Source of the DNA: Wickerhamiella versatilis
Taxonomy: Eukaryota
Length of the DNA: 61,855 nucleotides
Reading direction: 5' to 3'
NCBI GenBank assembly: GCA_030867685.1
Contig: JAQOWU010000001.1
Location: forward strand, 1,054,001 to 1,115,855
Under the pieces are notes generated by a model. That model was not told the DNA's origin. It made no database searches and saw only the letters and a list, made by a program, of their open reading frames with translations. Positions 30,663 to 60,306 of this stretch are shown here, one piece after another (position 1 is the first letter of the stretch; each line of letters opens with the position of its first letter). A program made the translations under genes and the position numbers.

Positions 30663-33071
30663 ATGTCTCTTTTTGAGCCGGTGGGTCTAGGTGATGTCGA
30701 GCTAGGCCATAGAATTGTCTTGCCACCACTCACCCGATTGCGAGCCAACGAGAAAGGAGTTCCAAGTGGACTGGATGCGGAGTACTACAGGCAACGAGCC
30801 CAAGCAACCGGAACCTTGCTAATTGCAGGTGCCTTAATCAATGATGATGACGAGGCACATCCGTCGACACCAGGCATATACACTAGTGATCAGATAAAAG
30901 GCTGGAAGAAAGTCACTGCTGCTGTACATCAGCAGAAATCTTTAATATTTCTACAGCTATGGTCGATTGGTAGGTATTCGGCTGGTAAAAACTATGGAGG
31001 TAAAGGTGAGCCAGTAGGTGCCCCAATAGATGAGCTTTCCACAGCGGATATAAGTGATGTTGTCAAGGATCATGTGAAGGCAGCTAGGAATGCTATTGCT
31101 GCTGGATTTGATGGTGTCGAGATTCATGGAGCTCACGGCTGCTTGCTAAATCGATTCCTGTATGACGATAACAGTAGGAATGATAGATATGGTTGTTCAA
31201 TTGAAAACAAAGTGAGGATATTTTTTGACATCATAGACGCCGTATCAGATGCCATAGGGTCCCCAAAAGTCGGATTGCGCCTTTCTCCATTTGATAGCGA
31301 CTATGCCTATGGCCCTATCCCCATATTTTCTTACTTATTAGCAAGGTTGGAACAAAAGAAGAAGGAGGGAAGAGAAATTGCATATGTACATCTCGTAGAA
31401 CCTCGAAATCCAGGCGAGAATTCGGACTTTATCCGCCATATTTGGTCAGGCATACTTATTAGGGCTGGTGGCTTCACTCCAAAGACAGCAGCAGAGGCTG
31501 TGAAGGATGATCCTAAGCTACTGATAGCTTTTGGTAGGTATTTTATATCGAATCCTGACCTTGTAAGGCGCTTGCGGGATAACCTCCCTCTCACCAAATA
31601 CGATAGAAGTACGTTCTACAGTCAGGATGCAAAAGGCTATACCGATTATCCAACTTATGACGAACAGATAGAGCGGGAACGGTTACATCAACCCAAGAAA
31701 TCCCGCCTGCAGAAAAAGCTCATTCTAAATGCGTTTGCGATGACGACGCCAAACCATCTGTCACCCGGTTTATGGAGGCATCCAAGTAGTGACACCTCCA
31801 ATTATAACAAGGTTGAATACTGGGTGAACTTAGCGAAGTTGCTTGAACGGGGGAAATTACATGCACTTTTTATCGCTGATACGCTTGGACCCTATGATGT
31901 ATATGGAGGCCCAAGGAACATTAAGCCTGCTGTCACAACTGGCACTCAGTTTCCAGTTGGTGATCCTGCACTAGCTGTATCTGCAATGGCTGATGTGACC
32001 CAAAAACTTGCCTTTGACGTGACGACAAGCACAACTTATGAGCATCCCTACACTGTAGCTCGAAGGTTTTCGACCTTAGATCATTTGTCAAATGGACGGG
32101 TTATCTGGAATATAGTAACTTCTTACTTAGAAAGTGCAGCCCAAATGTATGGTCTGGAAACGCAGATTGATCATGATGAGAGGTATGGTAAAGGTGAAGA
32201 GTTCCTAGAAGTTTGCTATAAGCTCTGGGAATCCAGCTGGAAGGACGATGCTGTCCTTCGCGATAAAGCTCAAGGGATATTTGCTGATGTGAACAAAGTA
32301 CGACCTATTCATCATGAAGGGAAGTATTTCAAGGTTGATGGTGTGCATATCAATGAGCCATCTCCTCAGCGCACACCTCTACTTTTTCAAGCAGGAACCT
32401 CCAAGCGCGGAAGTGAATTTGGTACAAAGCATAGCGAGCTGATCTTTATATCCGGATTTAATTCTGCTCGTACAGGTCAAACGGTAGCGGGCCTTAGAAA
32501 ACAAGCTGAAGAGCAGGGGCGCCGTGCCGACCAAATCAAGATCGTGGTTAGCGTTGCTTTGATTTTAGGAGAAACAGATGAAGAGGCGCAGCAGAAGTAT
32601 AATGATTTCTTGTCTTATGCGGATGTTGAGGGTGCTCTCACCCTTTTTGGTGGATGGACAGGGAGTGATCTGGCGAAATTTCGTGACGATGATGACTTTC
32701 GTTTTGAAGGTCCGCCCGCCATTCAGTCAACTGTACTTAGTATTGACGATTCCAGACGGTGGACTAAAGCAGATATTGCCAAGGAATTGATTCTTGGCGG
32801 GTTTAGCCGCAAGATAGTCGGTAGCCCAACTACTGTGGCAGATGAGCTGGAGCGTTGGGCGACCGAATCGGATCTTGATGGGTTCAACCTTGCCCATATT
32901 ACATCTCCTGGGTCTTTTGAGGACATCGTCAACTTGCTTGTGCCGGAGCTCCAGCGGCGCGGCATATTTCACGATGACTATGACAGCGCTGAAACCGCAA
33001 GAGGCCAGGTTTTTGGCCATGACCATTTGCCAAGCGAACACCCAGGGTATCAGTACAAGTGGCTTGATTGA
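30663..33071 (+). CDS. Fusion: Old Yellow Enzyme barrel + NtaA/DszA/DmoA-type luciferase-like monooxygenase
   Basis: aa ~1-333: PLTRLRA, GFDGVEIHGAHG, AYVHLVEPR, FGRYFISNPDL, GYTDYP. aa ~350-802: LNAF..GLWRHP, LERG..HALFIAD, STLDHLS.GR..WNIVTS, PSPQRTP.LFQAGTS, PELQRRG. One uninterrupted ORF. Confidence 0.92.
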   Translation: MSLFEPVGLGDVELGHRIVLPPLTRLRANEKGVPSGLDAEYYRQRAQATGTLLIAGALINDDDEAHPSTPGIYTSDQIKGWKKVTAAVHQQKSLIFLQLWSIGRYSAGKNYGGKGEPVGAPIDELSTADISDVVKDHVKAARNAIAAGFDGVEIHGAHGCLLNRFLYDDNSRNDRYGCSIENKVRIFFDIIDAVSDAIGSPKVGLRLSPFDSDYAYGPIPIFSYLLARLEQKKKEGREIAYVHLVEPRNPGENSDFIRHIWSGILIRAGGFTPKTAAEAVKDDPKLLIAFGRYFISNPDLVRRLRDNLPLTKYDRSTFYSQDAKGYTDYPTYDEQIERERLHQPKKSRLQKKLILNAFAMTTPNHLSPGLWRHPSSDTSNYNKVEYWVNLAKLLERGKLHALFIADTLGPYDVYGGPRNIKPAVTTGTQFPVGDPALAVSAMADVTQKLAFDVTTSTTYEHPYTVARRFSTLDHLSNGRVIWNIVTSYLESAAQMYGLETQIDHDERYGKGEEFLEVCYKLWESSWKDDAVLRDKAQGIFADVNKVRPIHHEGKYFKVDGVHINEPSPQRTPLLFQAGTSKRGSEFGTKHSELIFISGFNSARTGQTVAGLRKQAEEQGRRADQIKIVVSVALILGETDEEAQQKYNDFLSYADVEGALTLFGGWTGSDLAKFRDDDDFRFEGPPAIQSTVLSIDDSRRWTKADIAKELILGGFSRKIVGSPTTVADELERWATESDLDGFNLAHITSPGSFEDIVNLLVPELQRRGIFHDDYDSAETARGQVFGHDHLPSEHPGYQYKWLD

Positions 33072-33902
33072 GTCTGGGTGTAGCTAGTCTAAGCTATAAT
33101 CATTTATAGAGATTATAGAGAGTTACATGATCATTAAATCTGTAGCTACATAGTCAATTTGATTTGATAGGTCAAGCTTTCTCGGGAATAGACAGTTCTG
33201 TATATGTATAGTTATCATATAAGAACCGTCTCTGGTCGTCACAGCAGTGACAGTCCACTCTGAAGATTTCCCGTATGTATAATAATGTGCACTTTTTATG
33301 ATACTATATCAGTAGATGAAAATCTCTAGGCTTTTTGAAAGACCCATATTTTTTCTTGGCATGAAGTTAGGATCTTTTATTTGGGGACTCGAAGGAGTAT
33401 TAGAGCCGTCAGACGAATGGATATAGAAAAAAAAACACATTATATTCTACACATGAAAATTCATTGCTCAACTCTGCATTAAAGACAGCCTTCATCATCT
33501 CACGTGTAATTGGTAATGGTCACGTGCCTAGCCGAGACCGTTGGCTTGACTCCAACCGGGGGCTATCTTGCATTGTCCAACCAGTTTGGTGCGGAATATA
33601 TATATATATATATATTGAAACCTCAGCTTTAATTTAGCGACAAAGCTTTGATCGGGGTCCTCTACGTTGAACAATAATAAGGTTCGTGAGGCAATGAAGT
33701 ATAGTCCATAGTCAACATCCAAGCTTCAAAAAAGGGTCAAATCCCCGTCTTCAAAAGTATTTTCTCCGAAATCAAACTGCTCTCATTCGGTTTTACAATG
33801 TTTTTAGCCGCATTATTACAAAGATATGACGATCACGCCATTGAATTTAATAATGGGCCATCAATGCATTTAGTTTAGCGAATTTGTCGACTAGCCCCCA
33901 CG

Positions 33903-35966
33903 ATGTCTGGTCAGAGTGGATCGGCGATCCTAAGTCTAGCTGAAGGTTATGGTGTCACAGTTGGTCTAGGCGTAGCATTTGCCCTCGTTATTGTGCTGGC
34001 GGTCTATCTGCAGAAAGTGTACTTGAGTGAGGATTCTGAGCACACAGAAATGTTTATGGTCGCCAATCGATCTGTTGGTACAGGACTCACTACCTCAGCT
34101 GTGTTTTCTTCCTGGATGTGGGTTAATGAGACTATATACTGTGCTCTTCAGACTTACAATTACGGGATTGCGCTTCCAATTTGGTGGGGTGGAGGACTCA
34201 GTTTCCAGATAGCGCTAATGGCTGTCTTGGGTGTCTTGGCGAAAATAAGAATCCCACATGCTCATACTTCCCTGGAAATAGTGCGAATAAGATATGGGAG
34301 ATTGGGCCATATTGCGTTCATGATCTTATGTTTAGTCTTGAACATACTTGGTTGTTCGAATTTGCTTTTTACTGGATCATCGGTTCTGAGTGCCATGACG
34401 GGTATGCATTTCGTAGCATCTACTATCTTACTACCAGCGGGTGTGGTGGTTTACACCGTACTCGGTGGTATCAAGGCTACTTTTTTGACAGACTTTCTTC
34501 ATACCACCATTGCCTTGATACTGATAATATATTTCACAATTGGAGTACTTACTAGTGATCATGTTGGTGGGCTTTCTGGGCTTTACGACAAATTGGTAGC
34601 TACAGCACCAAATCAATATATCGATGGAAATTACAAGGGCTCGCTTTTGACGTTCAGGTCACAGCAATCTGCCATTTGGGGATTGATGTTGAAGTTCGGA
34701 AACTTGGCATTGGTTGTCATGGATACCTCATTCTGGCAGAAGTCATTTGCTTCGGAGGCAAGGTCAACTGTACCTGCTTATGACTTAGCTTCTATAGCTA
34801 TATTTGCGATACCGTGGGGGCTTGGAACTGTGATAGGGCTGACCTGCAGGGCCATTGAGCTGACTCCCATATTTCCGACTCATGGCATGAGTGCAAAAGA
34901 TCTAGGTAATGGACTAGTCATGCCATACACAGTTTATGCGGTTCTGGGGAAGGGATCCGCAGGTGGTGTCATAGTTCTGATATTCATGGCAGTTACCAGT
35001 AGTCTTTCCTCCACATTTATTGGTGTTGGCAGCATCTTATCGTTCGACCTCTATCGTACGTATTTCCATCCCGCGGCAAACGACAAGCACACTGTAAGAG
35101 CTTCACATATTTCGGTTGTTATATTTGGGGTATTCCTGACAGGTTTTACGATAATGCTCAAATATGTGGGTGCCGATATCAATTGGGTCAATTATTCTTA
35201 CGCTGTAATTACTGTCCCAGGAATCATACCCATAATACTAACACTCTTCTGGAAGGACCAATCTAAATTCGCATTCATTACTTCCATGTACCTAGGTCTT
35301 GCATCTGGATTAGCCGTGTGGCTTTCATTATCTTGGTATATGTATGGTGCTATCAATCTCCAGACAACCCAGCAGCCGGTTGTGTGTCTTTATGGTGCAA
35401 TAACATGTTTTTTCACTCCAGCAATATATTCACTGGTATTTTCTCTTATGAGACCACAAAATTACAACTGGAAAGAGTTTCTGCACCTTGAAACTCTGGA
35501 TGATGTACCCTCCTCTCGGTCAGACGAGGTAGACTCCACAGAGAATGGAGAAAAGGCATTTGAAACAAGTATTGAAGAGGCGAAGGGTACTTCCCACTTC
35601 GATGAATCTTCTGTTTCCAGTAATAAGTTTTTCAAGTATTTCCAATGGGTTACTGCGCCCCAGGAATCTGATAGTTTGCACCCATTTTCTGCTCAAGAGC
35701 TGAAGGAGCTTCGAGAGTGGCTAGTAGTCTCATCGATTTTCTTTGTCGTCATTGTTCTCCTAACGTTCGTTTTATGGCCCATGCCTTTATACCGTAACTG
35801 GATTTTTAATAAGCCCTTTTTTAAGGGATGGATTGTCGTTGCTATTATTTGGCAGTTTTTTGCGCTAGCGGCGGTTGTGGTATTTCCGGTTTATGATGGG
35901 AGACATGCGCTCTGGAAGGGGCTGGTAGGGCTATTAAAAGAGCTGCATCTTAAGAAAAGGAATTAG
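33903..35966 (+). CDS. DUR3-family sodium:solute-symporter-fold urea/polyamine-type transporter
   Basis: E.FMVANRSVGTGLT.SAVFSSW.W, P.AHTSLE..R.RYG, GGIKATFLTD.LHT, LWPMPLY. Confidence 0.9.
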   Translation: MSGQSGSAILSLAEGYGVTVGLGVAFALVIVLAVYLQKVYLSEDSEHTEMFMVANRSVGTGLTTSAVFSSWMWVNETIYCALQTYNYGIALPIWWGGGLSFQIALMAVLGVLAKIRIPHAHTSLEIVRIRYGRLGHIAFMILCLVLNILGCSNLLFTGSSVLSAMTGMHFVASTILLPAGVVVYTVLGGIKATFLTDFLHTTIALILIIYFTIGVLTSDHVGGLSGLYDKLVATAPNQYIDGNYKGSLLTFRSQQSAIWGLMLKFGNLALVVMDTSFWQKSFASEARSTVPAYDLASIAIFAIPWGLGTVIGLTCRAIELTPIFPTHGMSAKDLGNGLVMPYTVYAVLGKGSAGGVIVLIFMAVTSSLSSTFIGVGSILSFDLYRTYFHPAANDKHTVRASHISVVIFGVFLTGFTIMLKYVGADINWVNYSYAVITVPGIIPIILTLFWKDQSKFAFITSMYLGLASGLAVWLSLSWYMYGAINLQTTQQPVVCLYGAITCFFTPAIYSLVFSLMRPQNYNWKEFLHLETLDDVPSSRSDEVDSTENGEKAFETSIEEAKGTSHFDESSVSSNKFFKYFQWVTAPQESDSLHPFSAQELKELREWLVVSSIFFVVIVLLTFVLWPMPLYRNWIFNKPFFKGWIVVAIIWQFFALAAVVVFPVYDGRHALWKGLVGLLKELHLKKRN

Positions 35967-36393: not shown

Positions 36394-37346
36394 TCAGTTG
36401 AACCCGTCGTCAATCTCATAGTCACCCGCGCGTTTTTCATACGACGCATTGTCATGGTAGTTCTTCACGCGTTGACGTACATACTCTGTCCCTGTAACGG
36501 GATTATGTTTCTGGTCCAAGCCTAGTCGCTGGAGAAGGGGCGATGGTGCAGTCTCAATTGCTGCCTGGCCGGGCTGCACAAAATAGAAAAGACCGATTCG
36601 AGGTCGATCGGCCTGATCCGGAGGAGGCCTAACCACACGATGTACGGTGCTCTTAAAGTAACCATTTGACCAAAATGACAGCGTGTCTCCAACGTTGCAA
36701 ATTATCCCATCATCAACCGGTGGTATATATTTCCATTCACCAGTCCTAGTTTTCAGTTGGAGCCCCCTAACTACTTGGCTCCAGAGCAAAGTTAGGCTAC
36801 CAAAGTCGGTGTGGGCACGGACCCAAATATTCTCAACCAATTGATCATCCTCCACGGACCGAGAGTGTATTTCATATAGCGTAAGTGATCATCGCTGGGG
36901 TCGTCATATAGATGTCGCTCAACAAAGTAGTTCTCATTCTCCAGCTCAAGAACAATGGCAAACTTTGGAATGTTTATAAACTCTGAGTTCTCTAGGACTG
37001 CTGTTCCGAAAACTGGACGTCGATTTAGACGCTTGTAGCCAAAATAATTACCGTTCGAAAAGTCGCATTCGAGGACAGTTTTTTCCTCCAAGGGTTGATT
37101 AAAAAACGCTTGGGCCAGAGAAAGCTGGATTTGTACTTCCCTTTTGCTGATTCCAGAGCCTACCACGGCCCAAAATCCGTCTTTTTTTAATGCATCCTTG
37201 AGAACTTCAGCTAATTGTTGCTTGCCGCCTGGGTTGTCGAAATTCGACAGATCTATCTTAGTTAACTGAGCCTAGTCAAGCTCATAAGCTGTGTCTGGCG
37301 GACTCTCCCAGTCGGTAATCGTCGAGGTTCCCGTGACAGATGTCAT
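36394..37346 (-). pseudogene. Broken 2OG-Fe(II) oxygenase (DIOX_N / isopenicillin N synthase-like family)
   Basis: ATG at 37346, TAG at codon 25 (37272-37274), IDLS.FD.PGGKQ.LA, a frameshift near 36862, then HTDFGSLTLL and FKSTVHRV..PP.DQ..R. Confidence 0.85.
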
Positions 37347-37607
37347 TTATGGATTTTGAATCAACGAAACTCCGGCCAGGTACATACATACAAGCTGTTC
37401 ACCATATATTGCGTGATGATTGTATAATCCTCCGACTGATGCATATAGTTTCACGAGTGGGGTAAAAAAGCCACGCAATTACAGGAAATTACAAAAAAAA
37501 TAGAGATCAAGCTACTGCATGGTTTAATTTAGATAAGAGTAATATGTGCCATACTGCGTAAGTGAGGAAAGGACTACGGTATCACCTCTGGAGCTATAAA
37601 CCTAATT

Positions 37608-38693
37608 TCAGACACCCCTTTCCTCCAAGACACGGCGGACTCGTGGTATTATCTCCCGCCCGTAGTCGATCGCATCGTTAAGATTGTCATAGCCTCTAAT
37701 AGATATGAGGTCAGCACCAAGATCAACATAGTCAAGTATCGAGTCAGCGATAGTCTTTGGAGAACCAACTAGGGCAGTGGAGGCTCCACGGGCATTAGTT
37801 GCCTGGACAGTGGGGTACCAAAGTGCTCGGTCCTGGATCTCCCCCTTTGCAGCAATCTCGAGAAGGCGCTGCGACCCCACATTCTGCGGGGGAGGCGCAT
37901 TTGCGGGTGTTTTAACCAACTCGCCAGCTGCCCGGTTCTTCTTAAGTATCTCAAGCGTTCTATGAGCCTTTTCCCAGGCCAAGTCATCAGTTTCAGCAGT
38001 AATTGGGCGGAATGTAACCCAGATTCTTGGTTTGTCAGTTCTACCGGCCTTCTCTGCCTCCGCGTAGATACGATCAATTTGCTCCTTGGTCTCTTTGAGT
38101 GGTTCACCCCAAAGACCGAAAATATCTGCTAATGACCCCCCGATCCTGTATGCTTCTGGAGACGAGCCACCTACTGAGATTGGGATCTTGCCATTCACAG
38201 GTAGAACCCGATTGCTGAATTGCTTGAACTGATAGAACTTGCCGTCCCAGTCGAAAGGCTCCGATGACTTCCAAGCCCTCTTAAGGATCTTGATGTATTC
38301 CTCTAGACGAGCATACCGCTCTTCCTTGGTCAAGAAGTCGCCCTCCCTAGCCTGCTCGGCATCATTTCCACCAGCAATGAAATGCACGACTGCCCGGCCT
38401 TTGCTGAGCTGGTCTAGAGTAGCAAGTGCCTTAGCGGCCACTGTTGGATATAGGGTGTTGGGACGGAGTGCGACAATGACCTTTAGCTGTTTTGTCACGG
38501 AGGCGATTGTGGCTGCTGTGGTGAAAGGATCAAATCCACCAGAATCATATGGCTGCAGTGTGTAATTAAATCCGTAGTCATCTAAATTACGAGCGTAGCG
38601 GACCAGATAATCGGGGTCCACACCTGCTTTGGGCTGTGGATTGATCTCAGTAGACGCATTCGGAAACGCCAAGCTGATGAATTCAACCGGCAT
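37608..38693 (-). CDS. Luciferase-like (SsuD-like) FMNH2-dependent alkanesulfonate monooxygenase
   Basis: IVALRP, ATLDQLSKGR, EQAREGD..K.ERYAR..EY, VGGSS.EA, WGEPL, TALVGSP. Likely start MPVEF at 38693 (an upstream in-frame ATG lies at 38759). Confidence 0.92.
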   Translation of the reverse strand: MPVEFISLAFPNASTEINPQPKAGVDPDYLVRYARNLDDYGFNYTLQPYDSGGFDPFTTAATIASVTKQLKVIVALRPNTLYPTVAAKALATLDQLSKGRAVVHFIAGGNDAEQAREGDFLTKEERYARLEEYIKILKRAWKSSEPFDWDGKFYQFKQFSNRVLPVNGKIPISVGGSSPEAYRIGGSLADIFGLWGEPLKETKEQIDRIYAEAEKAGRTDKPRIWVTFRPITAETDDLAWEKAHRTLEILKKNRAAGELVKTPANAPPPQNVGSQRLLEIAAKGEIQDRALWYPTVQATNARGASTALVGSPKTIADSILDYVDLGADLISIRGYDNLNDAIDYGREIIPRVRRVLEERGV

Positions 38694-39389
38694 TGTAACT
38701 TTTCTCGTCTTTGCCCTATCTGTAGAATACTGTTTCTGTATATACTCGACCTTAGGCATTTTTAAATGTATCCCACTTTAGTCACAAAGGGATTGCGACA
38801 AAGGCTCAGTGATCACGCCATATCAGATATGTGATGACTAATACATTAAGCTACTGAAGACAACCAACAAGACAGCAAGCTTTACAATTGACGAGTCTTA
38901 ACTCTCCAGCTTTTGCCCCAGACTTATCTTGAATTTATGTGGTTGCATAGTACGTATATACATATACACTGGTCTATCCGGAATTATCTACACGATACTC
39001 AAACTAAGGTTCACGACTTGTTGCAATCCAAACATTTAAATAAAATACCAGCAAATATTTCGCGAATTAAAATGATTATACAGCTATAAGATGATGTTAA
39101 AGACTATGCTGGAGGCACAGTGCAGGAGATAAGACATATTCTCGCGTAATAGCAAATTCAATAGTTGAGGATAAGGAAATAGGTTGTCTAGAAAATCAGG
39201 TAGTAAAACAATATCAGAAATGAAATAAATTGCCGAAATTGTGTTCGTCTTGTCATTTTACAATTGCTTTCAGATATCTGAGAAAGATTCAACGATCTTA
39301 CTGATAATGAGGTTCGTGATGTCACGTGCCATGGGGCAAGACACAGTATTTAGCGTAGGCTCTGCCGATTTCTAACCTCAACCTCGAGA

Positions 39390-40577: not shown

Positions 40578-40829
40578 TATCAACTGGTAGAACTTAAAAT
40601 ATATTTATGTCCTCGCACACATTGCTATATAGCTTTTGAAATGCAAGTCATACTGCTGTCCCCTATATATATAGCTTTCTGAAGCCTTCGAGTTTAAGGT
40701 TTATGACATAACATAGCATAGCATCTGGAGACATGGAGCAAAAGTCATGAATCGTTATCGTCATATAACGTGACCACAGGTGATCGCCGCAAAAGGGTTA
40801 TCAGGTAATTTTCAGGGTCATCTGAAACC

Positions 40830-42518: not shown

Positions 42519-42829
42519 TATTTCTTGTCTTATCTTCGAATTAATAGCATTTTTACAATTAAGAATCGTGGTTTCGCTTCACACACAAATTATGTAAATT
42601 ATCATCATAGATCAATCCAATGCGGTTTGATGAAAAAGTGATATAGAAAATTTGCGCTTCAATAACTTTGGCTGGCTGTAGAACGCAATATAGGCTAACT
42701 ACATGGCATTTAGCAGCATTCTGCAACAGACATCCAATTCACAATGGTCACGTGAATTGTAGTGATATTCTCATTACTTTGAAAAATTCTTTCGTCTCTG
42801 GTTTCCTTCTTGAGCTCAAAGAGAGGTTG

Positions 42830-51072: not shown

Positions 51073-51598
51073 AACCTTACTTTATAGTGAGTAAAAACGC
51101 AAATATTAATCTCTAGTCTGCTTATTCGCCTAATCTCTATCGATGGTGCAACAACATGTGATTTGACATGCGTGATGACTTACCATGGTCTATCTATGTG
51201 ATAGCACTTACGAACGGAGAAATGGTCAAGCAATTAGGTCTGAAATAATTACTAGCAACCCGATGAGTTGAGTGGTTACCCTCTCAATATTAAGTTTTTT
51301 CTTCTTTATCACCCTGCCGTGAAAACCTTCTAGTCCATCTGAGCAGACATGCCAGTATTACTGGTGTTTGGTAAGTGCAATGCGGTATCATTTGATGGTT
51401 TAAATGCTATTTAAATGGCGTGAGTTCTAATCAGTAAGATAAGCCGCATTCTCGTGCAGGAAGTAGTTATCATTATGTCTACTTCACTACCTTAGGCTGC
51501 CTGGGCGATGCACGGTAGCTTTTGTCGTGGTGGGTTACCAATGAATGTATTTCGGGCAATATTTTATATCTATACAAAGTACAGGTCTATTCCGCAGT

Positions 51599-52156
51599 CT
51601 AGTGCTTGAGCTGCATGAGCCGAGTGTTGGCATTGGTCAGCGCATTAACCTTGTTATCACTAACATGGTAGTCCTTGGATGCCATGTCATTCAGCTTGCC
51701 AATGGCTTCTGAGAGATCCTTGACCCCGCCGTCGGTTATCATGTCAATAGCACCACCACCGATGTTACCGATCAGAACTTCGACACCATTGGTCACCGAC
51801 TGGAAGAAGTCGCCGAGAAGGAAGTTGCCAATGTCCTTGTTGATACCGAGGGAAGCATATGTCAACAGCTTGGAGTCCGTGAGCATACCCAGAACATTGT
51901 CAATCTGGGAATCAGTCCCAGTAATCAAGGCGTTGAGGGAGCTGGCAACTGCATGGCCGTCTCCAGATTTGATTTGTCCTGCCAGAGTATCAACGACTTG
52001 CTTCGAGTTTGTTATCGCATTGTGGAGGCCAGCCATGTTAGGGTTGGAGTTGGAATCATAGTCGCTCTGGTCGAAGCAATCCTCAACAGTGTTGTCGAAG
52101 TTTGAAGGGGCAGCAAGGACGGCAGAGACAAGTAGGGAAAGAGTGGTAAATTGCAT
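51599..52156 (-). CDS. Small secreted protein of unknown function
   Basis: Signal peptide MQFTTLSLLVSAVLA-AP, 185 aa, visibly C/G-ending codon bias. Confidence 0.8.
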   Translation of the reverse strand: MQFTTLSLLVSAVLAAPSNFDNTVEDCFDQSDYDSNSNPNMAGLHNAITNSKQVVDTLAGQIKSGDGHAVASSLNALITGTDSQIDNVLGMLTDSKLLTYASLGINKDIGNFLLGDFFQSVTNGVEVLIGNIGGGAIDMITDGGVKDLSEAIGKLNDMASKDYHVSDNKVNALTNANTRLMQLKH

Positions 52157-53800
52157 GAGCGAGTGAATGATGAATTATTTGGTGAAATTTGCTACTGTAT
52201 TTAAGCGACCACTGCAAAATTAGCTCATACTCCTGAAACAATCATCCAAATTTCTTAAGCTTTAGGGTTATGTCGGCTAATATCGCTTCGAGGCCTTAAT
52301 GTATCAGTGAAATGAACCTAATTCCTTTCACTATGACTACGCATAGTACCTCTCTCCCTTTCGAGTATATTGATAACAATCGATCCAATTTGTCATATAT
52401 GTACACACGTGTCCGGACAATATATATATAAAGCCGGTTGCTCTTCGACTCAAATAATCTCATTAAACATTTATCTAGTCAGTGATGTATAGGATTGAAT
52501 AACTGTCATGTAAAAATATACAGTCTAATTTGGCATTACAAATGAACTGAACTCATCTAAGCTGCAATGTATTAAGCCGATTAACCCAACACATCCAAGA
52601 TGGATAACAACTAGAAATCTCTCGAAGCCGGGGATGTGTATATATCGGAAAAGAAGAAAACAAGCCAAGAAACTGCCTAAGACCACCAGGACAATAAAAA
52701 GTTAGCCACTTCTCGTGGTGAGAAGAACATTATATTTCACAAAATCTACTAGATAGTACTCTCAAGAGCGTTTTGCTGGTGAATTGTAAGACTTGTGAGA
52801 TATCTTTCAACGTACTTGTCAAACCTCACCAATATTTGAGGGTTGATCACCGCATTTACAAACAAGGTTAAATATTTCGCAGCAGAATTAAGCCAGAAAC
52901 AAGGAAACGAGGAAAAAACAACGCAACAATAGACGGTGAAAAAGATGCAAAAAAAAACTACAGCACCTGCCGTTCTCACGTGGTCTCCCACCGTAATACT
53001 GAATCAGGCTCTCAGCAGCTTATGTATGGCTGATCGGACGGGAAGCCCAGTTACCTGCTGGATATGGCCGTAGCTGTTAATGAAGTTTGTACAATACTTT
53101 ATAATCATACTTCTGAGAAGTGCCTTGTGCTAGCTCTAGGTACGTCCACGGTATGCAAAGATAAGAATATACGAGAGGTTGAATACTCGCGCATCAGCTT
53201 CTGCTATGATAAGAGCTATAGTATGCAAATGTACCAATGGTATGTAGATAATCGATTGGTTCCCACAATAACAAGCGGGAAAATGGACTGGTAAAACCTG
53301 CCAGTAACATTGAAAGCTTTCGGGCTTTTCAACGATACCACTGAGACCCTACTTGCGGTGAAAAACCTGTCCCAGCGGACGCTAAATTTGAATTTTAACC
53401 TACCTTAACGGCACCCATTTTATTCCTGGCGCCCCGGAAAACCAGCAATACATGACGGAAACGCTTCTGGAATGGCTACCTAATCTATAAGCGCTGACTG
53501 GGCCCATTCGAACAATATAATTAGTTTGATTATTCGCCTAGCCCGTGTAGATATCAGCCTGTGAATACTAGATAGTATTACCAGCGACCGGGAGATATTG
53601 CGCTCATGTAATTTGGGTAGCGGCTGGTAGGATAAGCAGACCGAGGGGCAAATCTATGTCATTCTTAGATGATTAAATTGTGGGTTTATACAGCAATTTG
53701 ATTTATAAAGAATTCAATCTGTTTCAAACACATAAATGGATCCAATAGCCATTGTGGTAATCACAAATAACGTTATTCTATTCTTAAAGAAAATAGCTCT

Positions 53801-55085
53801 CTAATCGCGATTCCAAGAAGATCCTGCTTTTTCCTTTTCCTTTGCTGCATTCGCCAGGTCCTCTGTGCGGAGCTTCGAATTTGGATCCAAAAATGGTCGC
53901 TCACCTAGAGAAAGTGCACGTATACCTACGCGGGGTAGAATATCGCGGTTGGGAAGTCTGAGGTCGTGAATTATCGTGTGATAAGTTGATCTATTGTCCC
54001 AAATTGCGATATCATATTTGTTCCACTTGTAACGCAGTTGAATCTCAGGGCTGCTCTTCAACAAGTCGCTCAAATACCTTTTGACATAGTCGTTTTCTTG
54101 ACCACTGACTTCGTTGATCTTAGTGAAATGGTGTCCGATTCCGAATATAGACTTCCAGCCGGTAACTGGATTGGTACCAACTATTGGATGAGTAGCTGTT
54201 AGCTCGGTGCCTACGTTTTCCGGTGCACCTCGCTCTTCAGACCAGAAAGGAACCTTCTGTTTCGCTGAGACATTAGCAAATTGCGGCTGAGAGTACTCTC
54301 CTGTAAGCTTTTCCAAGTATGAAAGAAACTCGGGACTGACTTTTTCAGCCAATCCATAGCCAGATGCCCAGATTGTATCGCCGCCACTGCCCCCCTACAC
54401 TACCTGAATGGACTTGGGAAAGTTCACTTTCATCAGCCGAGCTGCTAGGGGTCTTTGTAAGCCTCAAACCAGCATAACTAGCTGGCACAGGCTCAAAAGT
54501 GATATCACTGTGGAATCCTCCCGCGGGATCCCACCCAGATGAACGACTGATGCCTTTGAATTATTCCGCAAGCAGTTCAGAGTCAAGCACATGGACTTCT
54601 GGAATCGCTTTCCCGTTGTGGGGATCAATTGCAGAATTAGTAAATGATGTGGGGTGAATGTGGAGACCTGAAGAAGATGGTTTATTTGCGGCTCGACCCA
54701 GAGCGTCCACCAGGCGTTTCTGCTGGTCAACGGATAGATCATACTGATTCTTGAAAAAGACCACACCTCTTTCGCTAACCGTTATAGCTAGATCACGCAA
54801 GAGCTCTTCATCCTGTAGTATGTCTGTTAGCCTGGCTTCTTCGTAGAATTTTCGGCCCAGACCTGGCGTCACTTCAGTAAACTTGTACTTTCCACTTAGT
54901 TTTCCCGAGTGTTTCAGAGGCTTGTAATTTTTGAGAACCGATGGGCCTTCTTTAGGCGTATGCGCCCAAGGAGATGGTCCTACCAGCTTAGATTTGGGGT
55001 TGTTCCTGAATGGGGTAGGATCTTCTTGATAACTAACAAATTTAAGCGAGTCTAAAGGAGAATCAACCGAGAGAGCCGGTGCCAT
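53801..55085 (-). pseudogene. Third TauD-family dioxygenase, interrupted
   Basis: RDLAITVSERGVVFF, an in-frame TAA at 54561-54563, FHSDITFEPVP, a +1 shift in a G6 run (54390-54395), then GGDTIWASGY, HPIV.TNPVTGWK, WDNRSTYH. Confidence 0.88.
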
Positions 55086-55272
55086 TTTCTGCTCACTTGT
55101 TGAAATAGTAGGACCATCGTCGTTCCTTTATACTTGCAAATTGCATCATAGCATTACAAAACACGTGATACATGTTATACACGACAACTAAGCTAGCCCA
55201 ATTGCAATCAACATATCAAAATACGTATAGCAGCCGTGAAAAGCTAGTGAACTGTCTCGTTAAAAGATATCT

Positions 55273-56979
55273 CTATGTAGTAAATCTGAAATCTAATCTC
55301 GCCGTGTCTTCCTTCTCAGAGCGATCCAAATAGTCCATTTGCTGCTTATGCGTCATTCCGCTCCACTGTTTCTCTTTCTGGGAGTTTCGCATGTAATAAT
55401 ATAAGTACGAAAGAGCGATGGTGAAGAAACTCGCTATTGTTATCGCGATTAGTTGGGTAAGACCACGTCGATAGTAAGGTGAATCATCGGCACGGAACAT
55501 CTGCGATGCAATGATGCCCGCCAACTGAGAAAAAACATTGGTTACAGCTCCAGATACTGTACGCATACCAACTCCTGCTGAATTGTGCGAGGCCCAGGTC
55601 ACATTAAGTGCTTCCACACGAGGAGCACCAAGGGCTAGAAGAAGGAGAGCATAGGATCCCCAATGGTCTTTGAGAAATCCAGGCCACCATCGCATTGCAG
55701 CAAAACACGGAAGCATCCATAGAGGAACAATGACCATGGGTATCCAGTAGGATTTCAGAGCTCTACGTCCGTAAATCTGAGCCAGAAGTGTGATTATCTG
55801 GAGAAAGTTTTGTGGAATCATGAGAAGACTTGTGTTCACTGATGAGAAGCCCATCCTCCTCAGAAGAACAGGCATATAATTGGTTAATGGTCGGTTTTGT
55901 AAATCACCGAATATTCTTACAATATATATCGGCCACAAATCATAATTTAGGATGCAGCGAACAATTTGTTTCAACCCCATGGGTGCTCGATTATTCATTG
56001 TGCCTTTTGCTGGTTCATCTCTTAATACATGATTGATAATGACCTTCTCTTCATGAGGAGAATACCATCCATGTGGCCTATACCACGCTCGGGTCTGAGA
56101 TGGTGAAGGAGACATCAGAAAGAATGCGAGCACGCCGATTAACAAAGAAAATAGTCCTTCAATCAGAAATACATACTGCCATCCATGCCAGCCATTGGAT
56201 CCCTCAAGATTAGAGTAGATGCCGTATGAAATAAGGGAGCTGAATGCTTGCGTCAGGGGATTAGCCGTGTATAGCCAGCCGACCCGAGTAGCGAGCTCAG
56301 GTCCGGTGTAGAAATAGCTCATCCATAATATCATATCACTTTTGTTAGCATCGAATTGAAATATTTTCCCTCTTTTGAATACTTACGGAATAAATCCTCC
56401 TTCCATCGCACCTATTAAGCATCGAGTTACCAAGAAGCCCGCCCGTGACTTTATCCGACATTGAACAATGGCGACGATTGACCAGAGGCACATTTGCGTA
56501 GGAATCCAAATATCGGGTCCGATCCATTTTGAGATCAAATTTGAAGGAAGCTCCATTCCTAAGAAGCACACGAGATTAACGGTGTTTCCCAGGTTGTAAT
56601 CGTCAGTCGATAATTTCAAATCGGAGAGGAAATTATCTGAAACAGCATTTTGAAGATTGAACCTATCGATATTCAGAGCAAATAACATGATGAATGCGAA
56701 AAGACATACATGAAGATCAGTTTTCCTAAGCGTAATTTTCCGGACTTCTGCTTTCGTGTAATAGAAGACAGGATCAAATAAATGCCTATTTTCGTATCCT
56801 GATTCTTCGTAAAGCCTTTTCCAGTATTTTGCTACTTCTTTATCACTGAATGGGTTTTTCAAGCCACCGTCGCACTCAGGCTCTTTGTGCAAATTCTCGC
56901 ATGTAACAGCGTTTTCAGAATTCCTGCTGAGACTATGGGAGCCAATCTCTTGGACTTCCACTTGTGGTTCTTCTTTCAT
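55273..56979 (-). CDS. Second Soa1-like MFS sulfonate transporter, two exons: 56979-56387 and 56338-55273
   Basis: Splicing joins the two ORF-track entries as EGGFIP-DMILWMSYFY, colinear with EGGFIPDVSLWMSYFY in the paralog at 40830. Ends RLDFRFTT. Confidence 0.9.
56339..56386 (-). other. 48-nt spliceosomal intron
   Basis: GTAAGT donor and TGCTAAC branch point followed by AAAAG acceptor. It contains an in-frame stop and its removal restores the protein. Confidence 0.9.
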
Positions 56980-57163: not shown

Positions 57164-58285
57164 ATGACTTGCGTAGACCAAATTTCTTTGAGGCGCCGCG
57201 GCGTGGGCTTGATAAGTGTGGATCGGGAAAAGTCTGCTGGCGGCTATGTCCTGATTGCCCCCCAAACTGCCGATGGAAAAGTATTCCTTGTTGAGGCGAT
57301 TTCGGGGGATATCGCTCATGAATGGAAACTACCGGTGAGGCCTGGTAGGCATGCAGTACTACTACCTAATGGGAACCTGGGGTACAATGGTAATCATGCA
57401 AATTCATTTAACAGGTACGCCCCATGGTCAATGTGGCACGGTGGTGATTTTTACGAGGTATCTCCAGAAAATAGGATACTGTGGCATTATGAGGATCCAG
57501 ATCACCATCACGATGCTCAGTGGCTTCCTAATGGCAACATTTTGTACTCTGCATGCGAGAAAGCCTCTCCCTCGTTCGCAGCAAGAATACAGGGAGGAAC
57601 ACCTAGCTATCAAAATGACAATATGTGGATCGATGTCATCAAGGAAGTAGACCGCGAAGGGACAGTTCTGTGGCAGTGGAAAGCTTCAGAGCACTTAGAT
57701 CCGAAGGACTTTCCAATTCATCCAGGATTTGGACGAACACACTGGCCGCTTATCAATGGTTTAGATATCACTGATAATGGCGCGACAGTACTGATGAGTT
57801 TGCGTGTCACTTCAGGAATAATAGGAGTTAATAAGAAGAGTGGGGTTGTAAACCTTCATATACCGCCAGGACCTCTATCGCATCAGCATGCACCAGTCCC
57901 ACTTTCGAATGGAAACATACTAGCATTCGACAACGGGAACTTTCGGCCTGGCGCACATGTTCCGTTTTCCAGAATAGTAGAGATCAATACCTCCGACAAC
58001 ACCCTTGCCTGGAGTTATGCCGATGAGCATGTGAGTGCTTTTTTCTCACCATATATGGGTAATGCGCAACCGCTGCCAAATGGAAACGTGCATATTACGG
58101 ATTCTACTTCAGGAAGGCTCTTTGAGGTGACGAGAGAAGGTGAGGTTGTCTGGGAATATGTTATACCCTGGTTTAACTGCTATCCTGATGTTGAAGCTCG
58201 TAAAACTGGACCAGGAAGAGTGAACACCGTTTTCAAGACATATAGATACTCACCAGAGGAGATACCGTGGCTTAAACGAAACTAG
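57164..58285 (+). CDS. Arylsulfotransferase (ASST)-like beta-propeller protein, no signal peptide
   Basis: Repeated LPNGN blades, HHHDAQWL, W.WKASEHL, HWPLING, HQHAP..L.NGNIL.FDNG, FFSPYMG.AQ.LPNGN..IT, GRLFEVT..GEVVWEY. Confidence 0.85.
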   Translation: MTCVDQISLRRRGVGLISVDREKSAGGYVLIAPQTADGKVFLVEAISGDIAHEWKLPVRPGRHAVLLPNGNLGYNGNHANSFNRYAPWSMWHGGDFYEVSPENRILWHYEDPDHHHDAQWLPNGNILYSACEKASPSFAARIQGGTPSYQNDNMWIDVIKEVDREGTVLWQWKASEHLDPKDFPIHPGFGRTHWPLINGLDITDNGATVLMSLRVTSGIIGVNKKSGVVNLHIPPGPLSHQHAPVPLSNGNILAFDNGNFRPGAHVPFSRIVEINTSDNTLAWSYADEHVSAFFSPYMGNAQPLPNGNVHITDSTSGRLFEVTREGEVVWEYVIPWFNCYPDVEARKTGPGRVNTVFKTYRYSPEEIPWLKRN

Positions 58286-58440: not shown

Positions 58441-60306
58441 ATGTCTTCACGAATCGAGAAGCAGCGCCGTACGAGGGTATCAATTGCTTGTGACAGCTGC
58501 AGAAGACGGAAGATACGCTGTAATGGGGGAAGTCCGAGATGTAGCAACTGTGAAACATATGGCGATGAATGCGTATATGCATTTCTACCTGACAGCCAGA
58601 GCGATCCGAAACTTGTGGAGATAAGCAAAAGACTGGAAAAAATCGAGGGATTGATTCGAGCAAAACATGACTCACACTGCTCCCCTGTTATTGACAGGCA
58701 TTTCGATATAGTCAACAACGAAAATGCACATCGAGGGATTAATCAGGAGGTATCCTTGTTCAATAATGTTCAAGGGAAGGAGAAAAATCTTGGACCGACG
58801 TTCAATGATAAAATTACACATTTAAAGGCGCATACTAGTGGAATAAAGGAAAGCTCGACAGTGTACATGTCGGGAGTGTTTCTCTCAATTCTCAGTACAT
58901 CCGACATATCACTGCTTTCAGAAAAGTTGAATGATCCATATTTGTGGCAAAGTCTAGAGGAAAAATCATACAACATGTGGCGCTTGTCTCACGCGTTACT
59001 AGGACGTCTTCTAGAGCCATCGAAAAATTTCTCTCCCGATCCATTATACTTTATGAATTGTATAAGAATTTATCGGCAGATCGATGGTCCATACGTTCAT
59101 CCTCTCATTTCACCCGAGGAGCTGTCAGATGACTTTTTGAATAATCTAACTGAGCCTGTTAAGAATGGCATTTTGGCTGCTGTAGTAATTATTGGGAGCC
59201 TTGGGATGCGAATGTATCCCTCATCAGAGCTAACTCATTTAGCTACAATCAAGGAACATGAAGATTCTGCTTATTACCAGGTGATTCGCAGTCTAAATAT
59301 GATTCGCTTTTCTCAGCCTGGATTCATCGAAGTCAGGATATCTATGTTACTTTGGTGGCTACTCCACTCATTCAGCTTCTTCCCGTCTACTGCACACTTC
59401 TTCGCGCCAATAGTCGAAATGGCGAAGGCTATTGGGATTGACCGGCGTGAGCTAAATGAACGATATGATCCAGATGATGCTATGCGGCGGAATAAAGTGT
59501 GGTTCTTGTTAACTAACTATCAGTATATTCTTTGCATACCACTTTCCTTGAAGGCTGCAGTCCCTCAGTCCACAATTGATTCAAGCTCGGATTCAATGGC
59601 GGATGAAATCCTCAAATATGCAATAGGTATCCACAAAATATATGACAAATCTCGTGATCGTTTATTTTCAGTTCTTAGCCGTAACTGCTCCTCAACTCAG
59701 CTTCTGAATGATATTACTTCGCTAAGCAAAGAACTAGAAAATTGGCGTGAGTCGCTCCCTGGTGCTCTATGGACAAACCATTTCGAACCTCAGCTCAGTC
59801 TCAAAGAATTTTTACACAAGTTCCCTGCAGATAATTTGAGATATAAGTACTACTACACAGTTATAGCCATTCACTCCATTCCCGCGTACGATGGTAATCT
59901 GCTCCCCCAAAGGATCTTGGTGTCTTTACAAAAAGTATCCGATGTCGCAAAAGAACTATTTAATATGGCTGTTCAGTCACAAAAGTTAAAAGGAGGTTGT
60001 ACATTACTACATAATTGCAATATTACCACTGCGTTGTCATGCTTTCTCTATAAACAGCTGCGCTATCCTGACGAGTACTCTAACTTTGAGGACTTATGTA
60101 TGCTCCAGGAGCATATCAAGCTGTTCAGAGAGAACAGCTGGTCTCCGACTGGGAAGGAAAACCCTATCTCACAAATTTGGGAAGTGTTGATAGATATAAT
60201 GGCACGACACCATGATATTTATTGTGCGACTTCCTCAGAAGAGGTGTATAATGAAATGATATCTACGGCCGGTATAGGTGGCAAAGATCAATGCCTCATT
60301 GGGTAA
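58441..60306 (+). CDS. Zn(II)2Cys6 fungal transcription factor
   Basis: ACDSCRRRKIRCNGGSPRCSNCETYGDEC, RLEKIE coiled coil and a fungal TF middle region. Confidence 0.93.
   Translation: MSSRIEKQRRTRVSIACDSCRRRKIRCNGGSPRCSNCETYGDECVYAFLPDSQSDPKLVEISKRLEKIEGLIRAKHDSHCSPVIDRHFDIVNNENAHRGINQEVSLFNNVQGKEKNLGPTFNDKITHLKAHTSGIKESSTVYMSGVFLSILSTSDISLLSEKLNDPYLWQSLEEKSYNMWRLSHALLGRLLEPSKNFSPDPLYFMNCIRIYRQIDGPYVHPLISPEELSDDFLNNLTEPVKNGILAAVVIIGSLGMRMYPSSELTHLATIKEHEDSAYYQVIRSLNMIRFSQPGFIEVRISMLLWWLLHSFSFFPSTAHFFAPIVEMAKAIGIDRRELNERYDPDDAMRRNKVWFLLTNYQYILCIPLSLKAAVPQSTIDSSSDSMADEILKYAIGIHKIYDKSRDRLFSVLSRNCSSTQLLNDITSLSKELENWRESLPGALWTNHFEPQLSLKEFLHKFPADNLRYKYYYTVIAIHSIPAYDGNLLPQRILVSLQKVSDVAKELFNMAVQSQKLKGGCTLLHNCNITTALSCFLYKQLRYPDEYSNFEDLCMLQEHIKLFRENSWSPTGKENPISQIWEVLIDIMARHHDIYCATSSEEVYNEMISTAGIGGKDQCLIG

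Follow-up and report, generated by a model that had tools for sequence, protein, structure and literature searches.

A preliminary description of a 61,855-nt stretch of DNA from the yeast Wickerhamiella versatilis (GenBank assembly GCA_030867685.1, contig JAQOWU010000001.1, positions 1,054,001 to 1,115,855 of the forward strand; the whole stretch is hereafter the window) singled out the genes between window positions 30663 and 60306 as a cluster for scavenging organic sulfur. Here we analyze this block and its surroundings. Read with the standard genetic code, the window holds 28 ATG-started open reading frames (ORFs) of at least 150 amino acids (aa), and CTG codons align at conserved leucine columns, some of them shared with named Penicillium and Blastobotrys proteins. 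Families were assigned by Pfam (the 15 cluster ORFs, E ≤ 0.001), NCBIfam, self-tblastn, six-frame reading, and Pfam searches of relic segments; a window-wide scan for families covered 27 ORFs of at least 150 aa.

Fifteen contiguous loci form a metabolic gene cluster

The block consists of 15 consecutive protein-coding loci and one 5S rRNA gene. Its stated bounds are correct to the nucleotide: g01, which opens the block, has its ATG at 30663, and the Zn2Cys6 gene g15, which closes it, stops at 60306. Pfam assigned a family to 13 of the 15 cluster ORFs, and Pfam, NCBIfam, and the relic-segment scans together confirmed the proposed run of 15 loci of named families. Genes of five enzyme families lie within 30 kb together with five importer genes and one for a Zn2Cys6 protein, the gene content by which a fungal metabolic gene cluster is recognized, while the 30 kb to the left carries 12 unrelated ORFs (P-type ATPases, an acid phosphatase, an alternative oxidase, an aldo-keto reductase, and others). 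Fourteen of the 15 loci share one theme, in line with the claim that a single gene looked unrelated; the 5S rRNA gene inside the block had been overlooked. A search of the window for tRNA genes found none.

Pairwise identities are 36.9% between g04 and g07, 35.5% between g04 and a TauD pseudogene, 43.6 to 44.8% between g05 and the third major facilitator superfamily (MFS) importer, and 23% between g08 and g05. Paralogs this old (23 to 45% identity) indicate that the arrangement did not arise by recent tandem duplication. We conclude that the gene arrangement exceeds chance, and we regard the block as a true metabolic gene cluster of this budding yeast. A 2-oxoglutarate (2OG) oxygenase relic and the third TauD gene are dead; the other 13 loci are intact or nearly so. 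The enzyme loci are as follows.

30663 to 33071, plus strand: g01, 802 aa, fusion of an old yellow enzyme (OYE) domain with an NtaA/DmoA-type luciferase-like monooxygenase (LLM) (Pfam, NCBIfam, and PDB matches)
36397 to 37350, minus strand: 2OG-Fe(II) oxygenase pseudogene, DIOX_N plus 2OG-FeII_Oxy (six-frame reading, Pfam)
37608 to 38759, minus strand: g03, 383 aa, SsuD/MsuD/SfnG-like monooxygenase dependent on reduced flavin mononucleotide (FMNH2) (Pfam, PDB)
39390 to 40577, plus strand: g04, 395 aa, Jlp1-type sulfonate/2OG dioxygenase (Pfam TauD, PDB)
44807 to 46120, plus strand: g07, 437 aa as written, second TauD/Jlp1-type dioxygenase (Pfam TauD)
48667 to 51072, minus strand: g09, 801 aa, fusion of an OYE-like domain with a flavin-containing monooxygenase (FMO) (Pfam, PDB, alignment of four fusions)
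53804 to 55127, minus strand: third TauD/Jlp1-type gene, a pseudogene in three pieces (Pfam on the pieces, self-tblastn)
57164 to 58285, plus strand: g14, 373 aa, arylsulfate sulfotransferase (ASST)-like protein (Pfam PF05935 Arylsulfotrans, 76.4 bits)

Two flavin enzymes are fused to OYE-type domains

The product of g01, previously described as a DszA/NtaA-like enzyme, carries the Pfam domains Oxidored_FMN and Bac_luciferase, arranged as a complete OYE domain (residues 2 to 337), a basic linker, and an LLM (residues ∼350 to 800). Membership in the NtaA/DmoA family held up (NCBIfam TIGR03860, 488.8 bits against a cutoff of 279.7), the OYE fusion had gone unnoticed, and the likeness to DszA proved distant. 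The best solved relative of the LLM domain is the dimethyl-sulfide monooxygenase DmoA (6ak1; 7.5e-142, 477 bits, residues 350 to 799), followed by the alkane monooxygenase LadA at 6.9e-126, with DszA (5tlc) at only 2e-65. As DmoA and LadA are far nearer than DszA, "DmoA-like" is the better label. The proposed analogy with bacterial dsz systems is weak, given the distance to DszA and the finding that none of the 27 scanned window ORFs is DszB-like, DszC-like, or acyl-CoA-dehydrogenase-like.

The OYE domain of g01 is full length (positions 1 to 341 of the 342 in the PF00724 profile) and matches yeast OYE1 to OYE3 at about 1e-83 in the PDB. Aligned with OYE2 and OYE3, it keeps His191 and the FMN-contacting residues, which we take to be Thr37, Gln114, Arg243, and Arg348 in OYE1 numbering; His stands at the Asn194 position and Cys at the Tyr196 position. 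The latter position is variable across eight OYE-LLM fusions (Tyr in five, Cys in two, Thr in one). Among the best 120 of 4,736 g01 matches, seven are OYE-LLM fusions, all unnamed and 61 to 96% identical to g01; the others are unfused LLMs, mostly from filamentous ascomycetes, at ∼57% identity. We found no published OYE-LLM fusion in the literature searched, and OYE and LLM genes are reported to share operons in Firmicutes (PMC4518038). The 27 scanned ORFs include neither an ABC importer nor a separate flavin reductase of the SsuE/MsuE type, and the sole candidate flavin reducer in the window is the OYE domain of g01.

The FMO of the preliminary description is present in g09 (residues ∼340 to 801), joined to a divergent OYE-like domain (residues 1 to ∼335) that had been missed. 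Only positions 2 to 194 of PF00724 are matched by the latter, and the canonical FMN and substrate residues are not found. Relative to morphinone reductase, Thr is replaced by Asp, His by Asn, and the phosphate-site G-R by S-D, and four residues are deleted; in an alignment of four fusions the substituted residues are invariant. The FMO domain scores 109.5 bits against PF00743. Its FAD motif GxGxxG and the motif FxGxxxHxxxY, which we take to define class B FMOs, are readable, and the second (NADPH) motif reads G-T/S-R-E-S-G in all four fusions, a position at which solved FMOs vary. The best NCBIfam match is trimethylamine monooxygenase, at 125.9 bits far below the 675-bit cutoff. With just two cysteines, g09 lacks an Fe-S cysteine motif. 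A word-based search returned three full-length relatives; HMMER over 1.84 billion representatives aligned only two end to end and also returned one distant 912-aa protein with a canonical OYE plus an FMO. An AlphaFold2 model from the four-sequence alignment was unusable (mean pLDDT, 42.9).

SsuD-like and TauD/Jlp1-type oxygenases

The description of an SsuD-like monooxygenase agrees with g03, which scores 252.9 bits against PF00296 and has SsuD, MsuD, and SfnG as its nearest solved relatives. Seven of its nine PDB matches at E ≤ 1e-10 carry the name of an enzyme acting on alkanesulfonates, methanesulfonate, or dimethylsulfone (SsuD 1m41, 1.6e-41). The SsuD score (TIGR03565) of 184.9 bits lies under the equivalog cutoff of 518.2, and we place g03 by sequence in the SsuD/MsuD/SfnG group rather than as an SsuD ortholog.

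Three TauD/Jlp1 dioxygenases had been counted; two are intact, and the third is a pseudogene. Against PF02668 (cutoff, 27 bits), g04 scores 186.4 and g07 177.8 bits. The best PDB match of g04 is Escherichia coli TauD (8.3e-42), and its closest named relatives are Jlp1-like proteins of Trichomonascus, Blastobotrys, and Sugiyamaella (58 to 61%), a match that also puts the organism close to these yeasts. Both proteins fall below the 313-bit cutoff of the taurine dioxygenase equivalog NF007104 (g04, 186.8; g07, 175.1), as expected for the fungal Jlp1 branch. Alignment to 1gqw and 1os7 shows that g04 and g07 retain what we take to be the catalytic residues: the H-x-D...H iron triad, the 2OG-binding Arg, and the sulfonate-binding Arg. 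The columns H190, D192, H339, R350, and R354 are invariant in 6 of 6 sequences. From these features g04 and g07 are predicted to release sulfite from sulfonates.

At position 46035 within g07 the window reads T6, and four of four public assemblies read T7 at full depth. The extra T would end the frame at 46092 with the usual C-terminal motif of the family, and T6 is probably a one-base assembly error or a strain-specific frameshift affecting the last ∼28 codons. The lesions of the third TauD gene (an in-frame stop at 54561 to 54563 and a frameshift near 54390) recur identically, with 0 differences, in contigs of two public runs (X9 and X13), which shows that the gene is truly dead in the lineage. 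The 2OG oxygenase had been called a relic, correctly: DIOX_N and 2OG-FeII_Oxy lie in two frames, with an in-frame TAG at 37272 to 37274 and a frameshift near 36880.

The oxygenases are depleted in cysteine and methionine

The proposed link to sulfur scavenging gains sequence-intrinsic support from two sides, the composition of the five intact oxygenases and an enrichment of TCACGTG in the promoters. Cysteine plus methionine makes up 0.75% of g01, 0.26% of g03, 0.25% of g04, 0.23% of g07, and 0.50% of g09 (0 of 441 residues in the TauD pseudogene), against 2.1 to 5.5% in each of the 12 flank proteins. Pooled, the five oxygenases have 13 such residues in 2,813 and the flank proteins 232 in 5,963 (Fisher p = 4e-25), and each oxygenase lies below every flank protein (Mann-Whitney U = 0, p = 1.6e-4). 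No such depletion is seen in the transporters, g10, or g15. The property extends to the relatives of the fusions: cysteine plus methionine is at most 1% in 7/7 OYE-LLM and 3/3 OYE-FMO fusions, compared with averages of 3.56% in the other FMO hits and 2.42% in FadH-like proteins. For g09, this depletion is the only evidence here that links it to sulfur.

Proteins induced by sulfur starvation are reported to be poor in cysteine and methionine (PMC11538405, PMC8557817), and PF00296, PF02668, FMO, and SOA1/SEO1-type transporter genes are described as sulfur-starvation induced in Candida (PMC11502921, PMC13170222). In Raffaelea lauricola, arylsulfotransferases are among the annotated sulfur genes, of which 108 of 150 (72%) are reported to be up in planta (PMC7441637).

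A T-flanked E-box and a 41-nt element recur in the promoters

Intergenic DNA of the cluster (9,269 nt) and of the left flank was scanned for CACGTG, with 1,000 dinucleotide shuffles as the control. The cluster has 11 sites against 1.04 expected; the shuffle maximum was 5, and 0 of 1,000 shuffles reached 11. The left flank has 3 against 1.1 expected, a count reached by 101 of 1,000 shuffles. The 5S gene contains one of these 11 sites, and the other 10 are in promoter-like DNA. A 5′ T precedes 10 of the 11, against 2 of 7 sites elsewhere in the window, and TCACGTG occurs 16 times in the whole window (4.79 expected), 14 of them at or beyond 30584. Eight of the 15 loci have an E-box upstream: g01, g02, g03/g04, g06, g08, g10, and the TauD pseudogene. 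The principal sites are as follows.

30585 to 30590: E-box with 5′ T, 78 nt upstream of g01
33501 and 33521 (33501 to 33526): two E-boxes, −402 and −382 of g02
39323 to 39328: E-box in the divergent g03/g04 promoter, −564 and −67, respectively
42749 to 42754: E-box, 81 nt upstream of g06
48023 and 48042 (48023 to 48047): two E-boxes, 65 and 84 nt upstream of g08
52406: E-box, −250 of g10
55162: E-box upstream of the TauD pseudogene
60620 to 60625: E-box beyond the last gene, T-flanked on both strands

A 5′ T before CACGTG favors Cbf1. TCACGTG is the Cbf1 motif described in sulfur-starvation promoters of Candida parapsilosis (PMC11502921). The CYS3-type motif ATGRYRYCAT gave 0 matches, and Gcn4 sites were not enriched. 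With the E-box shared by 8 of 15 loci and the oxygenases alike in their sulfur-poor composition, the cluster may be co-regulated. In the left flank, a histidine acid-phosphatase gene (5707 to 7230) has a G/C-flanked CACGTG at 5629, 78 nt upstream; its flanks are unlike those of the cluster boxes, and it may belong to a phosphate circuit.

A second recurrent element, a 41-nt unit, forms a tandem array that reaches the last base of the window. Its solitary copies in the window stand only in the promoters of g01 (twice), g02, g06, and g09; the E values below come from an nhmmer model built from these same copies.

61630 to 61855, plus strand: tandem array, 5.5 copies (Tandem Repeats Finder, 98% matches, score 445)
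29923 to 29963 and 30098 to 30135, plus strand: two solitary copies upstream of g01 (nhmmer, 3.5e-8 and 9.1e-9)
33562 to 33598, minus strand: solitary copy upstream of g02 (26 nt exact)
42655 to 42693, plus strand: solitary copy upstream of g06
51480 to 51519, plus strand: solitary copy upstream of g09

This unit may act in cis, be what is left of a satellite, or have arrived as a mobile fragment.

Importers, a candidate regulator, and genes outside the theme

The remaining loci of the block are five importers, the Zn2Cys6 gene, and two genes outside the theme.

33903 to 35966, plus strand: g02, 687 aa, importer of the sodium:solute symporter family (SSF) (Pfam SSF)
40830 to 42518, plus strand: g05, 562 aa, MFS importer (Pfam; best NCBIfam similarity TIGR00893)
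42830 to 44311, plus strand: g06, 493 aa, UNC-93-like MFS protein (Pfam UNC-93, 30.8 bits)
46354 to 47958, minus strand: g08, 534 aa, MFS importer (best NCBIfam similarity TIGR00893)
51599 to 52156, minus strand: g10, 185 aa, no family in Pfam or NCBIfam, signal-peptide-like start
52955 to 53075, minus strand: 5S rRNA gene (Rfam RF00001, 77.6 bits against a gathering score of 38)
55273 to 56979, minus strand: third MFS importer, 552 aa after intron removal, paralog of g05 (TIGR00893 best)
58441 to 60306, plus strand: g15, 621 aa, Zn2Cys6 transcription factor (Pfam Zn_clus)

The UNC-93-like transporter (Pfam cutoff, 22.9 bits) and the terminal Zn2Cys6 factor are both as first described. We considered whether the third MFS gene is a nonsense pseudogene and rejected this, as its in-frame stop lies inside a canonical 48-nt intron (56339 to 56386, with the signals GTAAGT...GCTAAC...AG); the intron-free sequence aligns unbroken to g05 at 44.8% identity. 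Relatives of g05 in a protein atlas carry only generic MFS names, and the Soa1-, Seo1-, and Dur3-like subtypes proposed earlier for the transporters are putative. The Zn2Cys6 protein g15 is 22% identical to another encoded at 8070 to 10064 and, from its family and position, is a candidate pathway regulator.

The atlas relatives of g10 are only unnamed ascomycete clusters at 0.79 to 0.80. Its third-codon-position GC content (GC3) of 0.61 is the highest in the window, and its sequencing depth is several times that of the adjoining DNA, with loose contig ends coinciding exactly with the limits of the gene. It therefore belongs to a multicopy family dispersed in the genome. The 5S gene, which lies in a 1.6-kb stretch that had looked empty, is shown to be multicopy in the same way, by elevated depth and by loose ends on either side in every DNA run; this dispersed gene is probably not part of the system and merely lies inside the block.

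A gene of bacterial origin and two-gene modules in fungal relatives

The ASST-like enzyme of the preliminary description is g14, at more than three times the Arylsulfotrans cutoff of 24.2 bits. Its relatives came from a one-genome-per-species set of prokaryote contigs: 99 were found and 80 kept (loci L072 to L151), all 64 to 69% identical over residues 2 to 372 and assigned to Burkholderia, Paraburkholderia, Variovorax, Comamonas, Delftia, Hydrogenophaga, and allied genera, with one assigned to phylum only. Characterized bacterial ASSTs are periplasmic and have a catalytic histidine. The start of g14 is unlike a signal peptide, the protein is presumably about 200 residues shorter than E. coli ASST, and no solved chain matched it at E ≤ 0.01. 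Its GC3 of 0.43 is like that of its yeast neighbors, and it sits between an intron-bearing gene and the Zn2Cys6 gene, features that argue for an old transfer rather than contamination. On this sequence evidence we regard g14 as being of bacterial origin.

Mixed ancestry had been proposed for the cluster. It applies to g14, while g04 is of fungal type; in five of these Burkholderiales genomes g04 had no match at E ≤ 1e-40, and the best match of g03, a Burkholderia gene, is 46% identical.

Around the bacterial homologs of g14, a divergent LysR regulator adjoins the gene in 74 of 80 loci, and the neighboring importer is of the xanthine/uracil-permease type in 38, TctC in 20, and an SsuA/TauA-like NMT1 ABC system in 16. 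In one locus (L140) the homolog lies between two NtaA/DmoA-type LLM genes. These neighborhoods suggest a conserved catabolic or scavenging role for the bacterial counterpart, an uncharacterized ASST-like gene of ∼370 aa. The W. versatilis window also contains, among eukaryotic genes of the left flank, an intact bacterial-type LysR regulator (316 aa; 13334 to 14284, minus strand) with HTH_1 and LysR_substrate domains above the Pfam cutoffs and a neighbor-like GC3 of 0.416. A genome scan yielded no close relative, and in five Burkholderiales genomes the best match is 35% identical. At E ≤ 1e-6 this regulator shows no relationship to the LysR genes next to the bacterial homologs of g14.

Metagenome neighborhoods of LLM relatives of g01 were surveyed at 71 loci, within the fetched flanks. 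Another family of the cluster lies nearby in 27 of them (SsuD-like in 12, TauD in 7, UNC-93-like in 4, SSF in 3, MFS in 2). In likely fungal contigs, an SSF gene stands beside the LLM homolog in L001 (61% identical to g02), L015, and L051, and an UNC-93-like gene directly beside it in L006, L007, L008, and L010 (44 to 51% identical to g06). No larger cluster was found in these likely fungal metagenome contigs, only two-gene modules. The yeast block therefore looks assembled from modules such as LLM plus SSF and LLM plus UNC-93-like, which fits the earlier suggestion of an assembled cluster.

A diverged form of the locus in public sequencing runs

Public runs that contain this DNA are mainly food and food-fermentation metagenomes. 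A second, diverged form, covering 36800 to 52000 and differing by ∼1 to 8% depending on the gene, is present at about half depth in three metagenomes and is the only form in run X20. It has a joint from 46282 to 50719 that omits g08 and most of g09 (46283 to 50718, ∼4.4 kb), keeping g07 joined to g09. In four of four public runs it reads TAC where the 2OG relic has TAG (37272). It may represent an allele, a paralogous copy of the region, or a strain that occurs alongside. Contigs of run X20, which we guess to be RNA, end near gene borders (39394 to 40633 for g04; 40822 to 42630 for g05), an observation that hints at transcripts but that we do not count as evidence; they leave 56143 to 56799, the stretch with the 48-nt intron, uncovered.

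DISCUSSION

We think it likely that this cluster extracts sulfur from organic molecules at times of sulfate, cysteine, and methionine shortage; its induction, its substrates, the order of its steps, and the reductase role of OYE we infer. The five importers (three anion:cation-symporter-type MFS proteins, the UNC-93-like MFS protein, and the SSF protein) would take up sulfonates, sulfones, thioethers, or sulfate esters. Sulfides may be oxygenated by the FMO domain of g09; the DmoA-like domain of g01 and the SsuD/MsuD/SfnG-like g03 would split C-S bonds with FMNH2; and the Jlp1-type g04 and g07 would free sulfite from sulfonates with 2OG and Fe(II). The resulting sulfite or thiol would enter normal sulfur assimilation. 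Reduced FMN would most likely come from the OYE domain of g01, in place of the separate reductase of bacterial two-component systems. Transcription probably runs through a Cbf1/Met4-type sulfur circuit at the TCACGTG boxes, to which the neighboring Zn2Cys6 factor g15 may add a layer of control. A relay from sulfide to sulfite is a plausible reading of the families present.

Several observations weigh against this proposal. Seven of the 15 loci, including g05, g07, g09, g14, and g15, have no E-box, and CACGTG is bound by other basic helix-loop-helix (bHLH) factors as well as Cbf1. Of the sulfur-regulon motif pair TCACGTG and AAACTGTGG, TCACGTG is strongly enriched and the Met31/32 core is not, with 5 copies of CTGTGG in the intergenic DNA of the cluster against 2 in the flank and a single ACTGTGG in each. 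The two pseudogenes and the variant without 46283 to 50718 indicate that parts of the cluster are dispensable. ASSTs transfer sulfate rather than release it, and the NtaA/DmoA family also holds nonsulfur enzymes (LadA and hexachlorobenzene and riboflavin enzymes). FMN is tightly bound in OYEs, for which the release or transfer of reduced flavin is not an established activity, and no OYE gene was fused or adjacent to the LLM relatives in any of the 71 metagenome loci.

The best of the competing explanations, which we nevertheless consider unlikely, is that individually sulfur-related genes piled up in a plastic, repeat-bounded, possibly subtelomeric region that collects dispensable paralogs for nutrient scavenging, with no selection for linkage and no shared control beyond the promoter of each gene. 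Such a region might well hold two pseudogenes among 15 loci, a 5S rRNA gene and a multicopy small gene, a 41-nt tandem array at the window end, and a variant lacking 4.4 kb in public runs; the restriction of fungal relatives to two-gene modules and of the E-box to 8 of 15 loci also fits. The age of the paralogs, however, speaks against recent local amplification, 14 of the 15 loci share one theme that includes a Zn2Cys6 factor, and one 41-nt element stands, solitary, in four promoters of unrelated genes.

It is quite improbable that the cluster serves nitrogen or xenobiotic catabolism instead, with the NtaA-like enzyme and the FMO breaking down amines or aminopolycarboxylates, Dur3-like uptake, and TauD-family hydroxylases acting on nonsulfur substrates. 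The NtaA/DmoA family does contain C-N cleaving and hydrocarbon enzymes, the FMO best resembles trimethylamine monooxygenase (at the subthreshold score given above), and the SSF family includes urea and polyamine carriers. Also in favor, nitrogen genes of Candida albicans are reported to rise along with sulfur genes under sulfur limitation (PMC13170222). Yet nearly all solved relatives of g03 are desulfonating enzymes, the Arg that binds sulfonate is retained in g04 and g07, and the boxes belong to the T-flanked Cbf1 class. Extreme depletion of cysteine and methionine is what sulfur limitation, not nitrogen limitation, predicts. That the E-boxes belong to another bHLH circuit (phosphate or lipid) and match a sulfur circuit by coincidence is hardly credible: CACGTG is common to several yeast bHLH factors and the left-flank acid-phosphatase gene carries a G/C-flanked copy at −78, but a Cbf1-favoring 5′ T precedes all but one of the 11 cluster sites, and the sulfur-poor composition is independent of the motif.

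The organic-sulfur cluster that we favor has a close counterpart in the yeast sulfur-starvation regulon (JLP1 and SOA1 of Saccharomyces cerevisiae and the Met4/Met32/Cbf1 genes of C. parapsilosis and C. albicans), with which it shares PF02668, PF00296, FMO-like, and SOA1/SEO1-type MFS genes (PMC5303821, PMC11502921, PMC13170222) as well as the TCACGTG box and sulfur-poor proteins (PMC11502921, PMC11538405). Those genes are described as dispersed, and the accounts of them given there mention no cluster, whereas here 15 loci are contiguous; JLP1 and SOA1, as the preliminary description stated, are unlinked and lie on different S. cerevisiae chromosomes (PMC5303821). The Met32 motif, dominant in Candida sulfur promoters, is not enriched in the W. 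versatilis cluster, and two of its enzymes are fused to OYE domains. Pairs of a desulfurizing enzyme gene and a presumed importer gene are described in fungi, namely, JLP1 beside a transporter gene in Basidiomycota and Eurotiomycetes and, in Saccharomyces, BDS1 beside SOA2 (PMC5303821). Here there are 15 loci rather than 2, comprising several modules, a regulator, and a bacterial gene. A further precedent, on which the literature search found nothing, is presumably the YLL055W-YLL058W sulfur neighborhood of S. cerevisiae.

Like the bacterial ssuEADCB/tauABCD and sfn/msu operons, the cluster combines SsuD- and TauD-like enzymes with dedicated importers, and bacterial relatives of the g01 LLM adjoin SsuD-like genes in 12 and TauD genes in 7 of the 71 loci surveyed. 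It differs in having MFS and SSF proteins in place of ABC importers, no SsuE/MsuE-type reductase among the scanned ORFs, a promoter for each gene, and a Zn2Cys6 factor in place of a CysB/Cbl-type LysR regulator. DmoA (6ak1) works with a separate reductase, DmoB, whereas g01 bears its putative reductase as an N-terminal OYE domain. StyA2B is said to be a naturally fused two-component flavin monooxygenase. Like it and the FadH-type proteins, which join OYE to an FAD/NADPH module, g01 and g09 unite a putative flavin-reducing module with an oxygenating module or a second flavin module in a single chain; here the pairings are OYE with a group C LLM and OYE with a class B FMO, and g09 lacks Fe-S cysteines.

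Within the literature searched, the novelty lies in the linkage of 15 loci, the pair of OYE fusions, and the ASST-like gene of bacterial origin; the component families and their sulfur regulation had been described before. No printed yeast cluster of this kind was found in that literature. A bolder interpretation remains tentative, and we would not be surprised to see it fail: that g01 and g09 are the first natural single-chain two-component sulfur monooxygenases in a eukaryote, that on two independent occasions OYE became a built-in flavin partner, once for a DmoA-like LLM and once for an FMO, and that fungal two-gene modules were combined with a gene from Burkholderiales into a block whose wiring consists of TCACGTG boxes and a 41-nt element specific to the cluster.

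Metabolic gene clusters in yeasts are few and mostly small, and a 15-locus organic-sulfur block would rank among the largest. Extreme depletion of cysteine and methionine offers a cheap, sequence-only flag for sulfur-limitation genes, and g14 is a clean candidate for transfer from a bacterium into a yeast metabolic cluster. A DmoA-like enzyme in food fermentations could, speculatively, affect volatile sulfur compounds. According to a 2018 review, the fungal PF00296 family was yet to be characterized genetically or biochemically, and a role for a fungal FMN reductase in sulfur assimilation was undemonstrated (PMC5857272). The block described here is one tractable locus in which substrates may be assigned to fungal PF00296, PF02668, and FMO enzymes. 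The OYE-LLM fusion gives a direct handle on the delivery of reduced flavin in fungi, and recruitment of OYE, if true, would answer the question of what feeds FMNH2 to fungal PF00296 enzymes.

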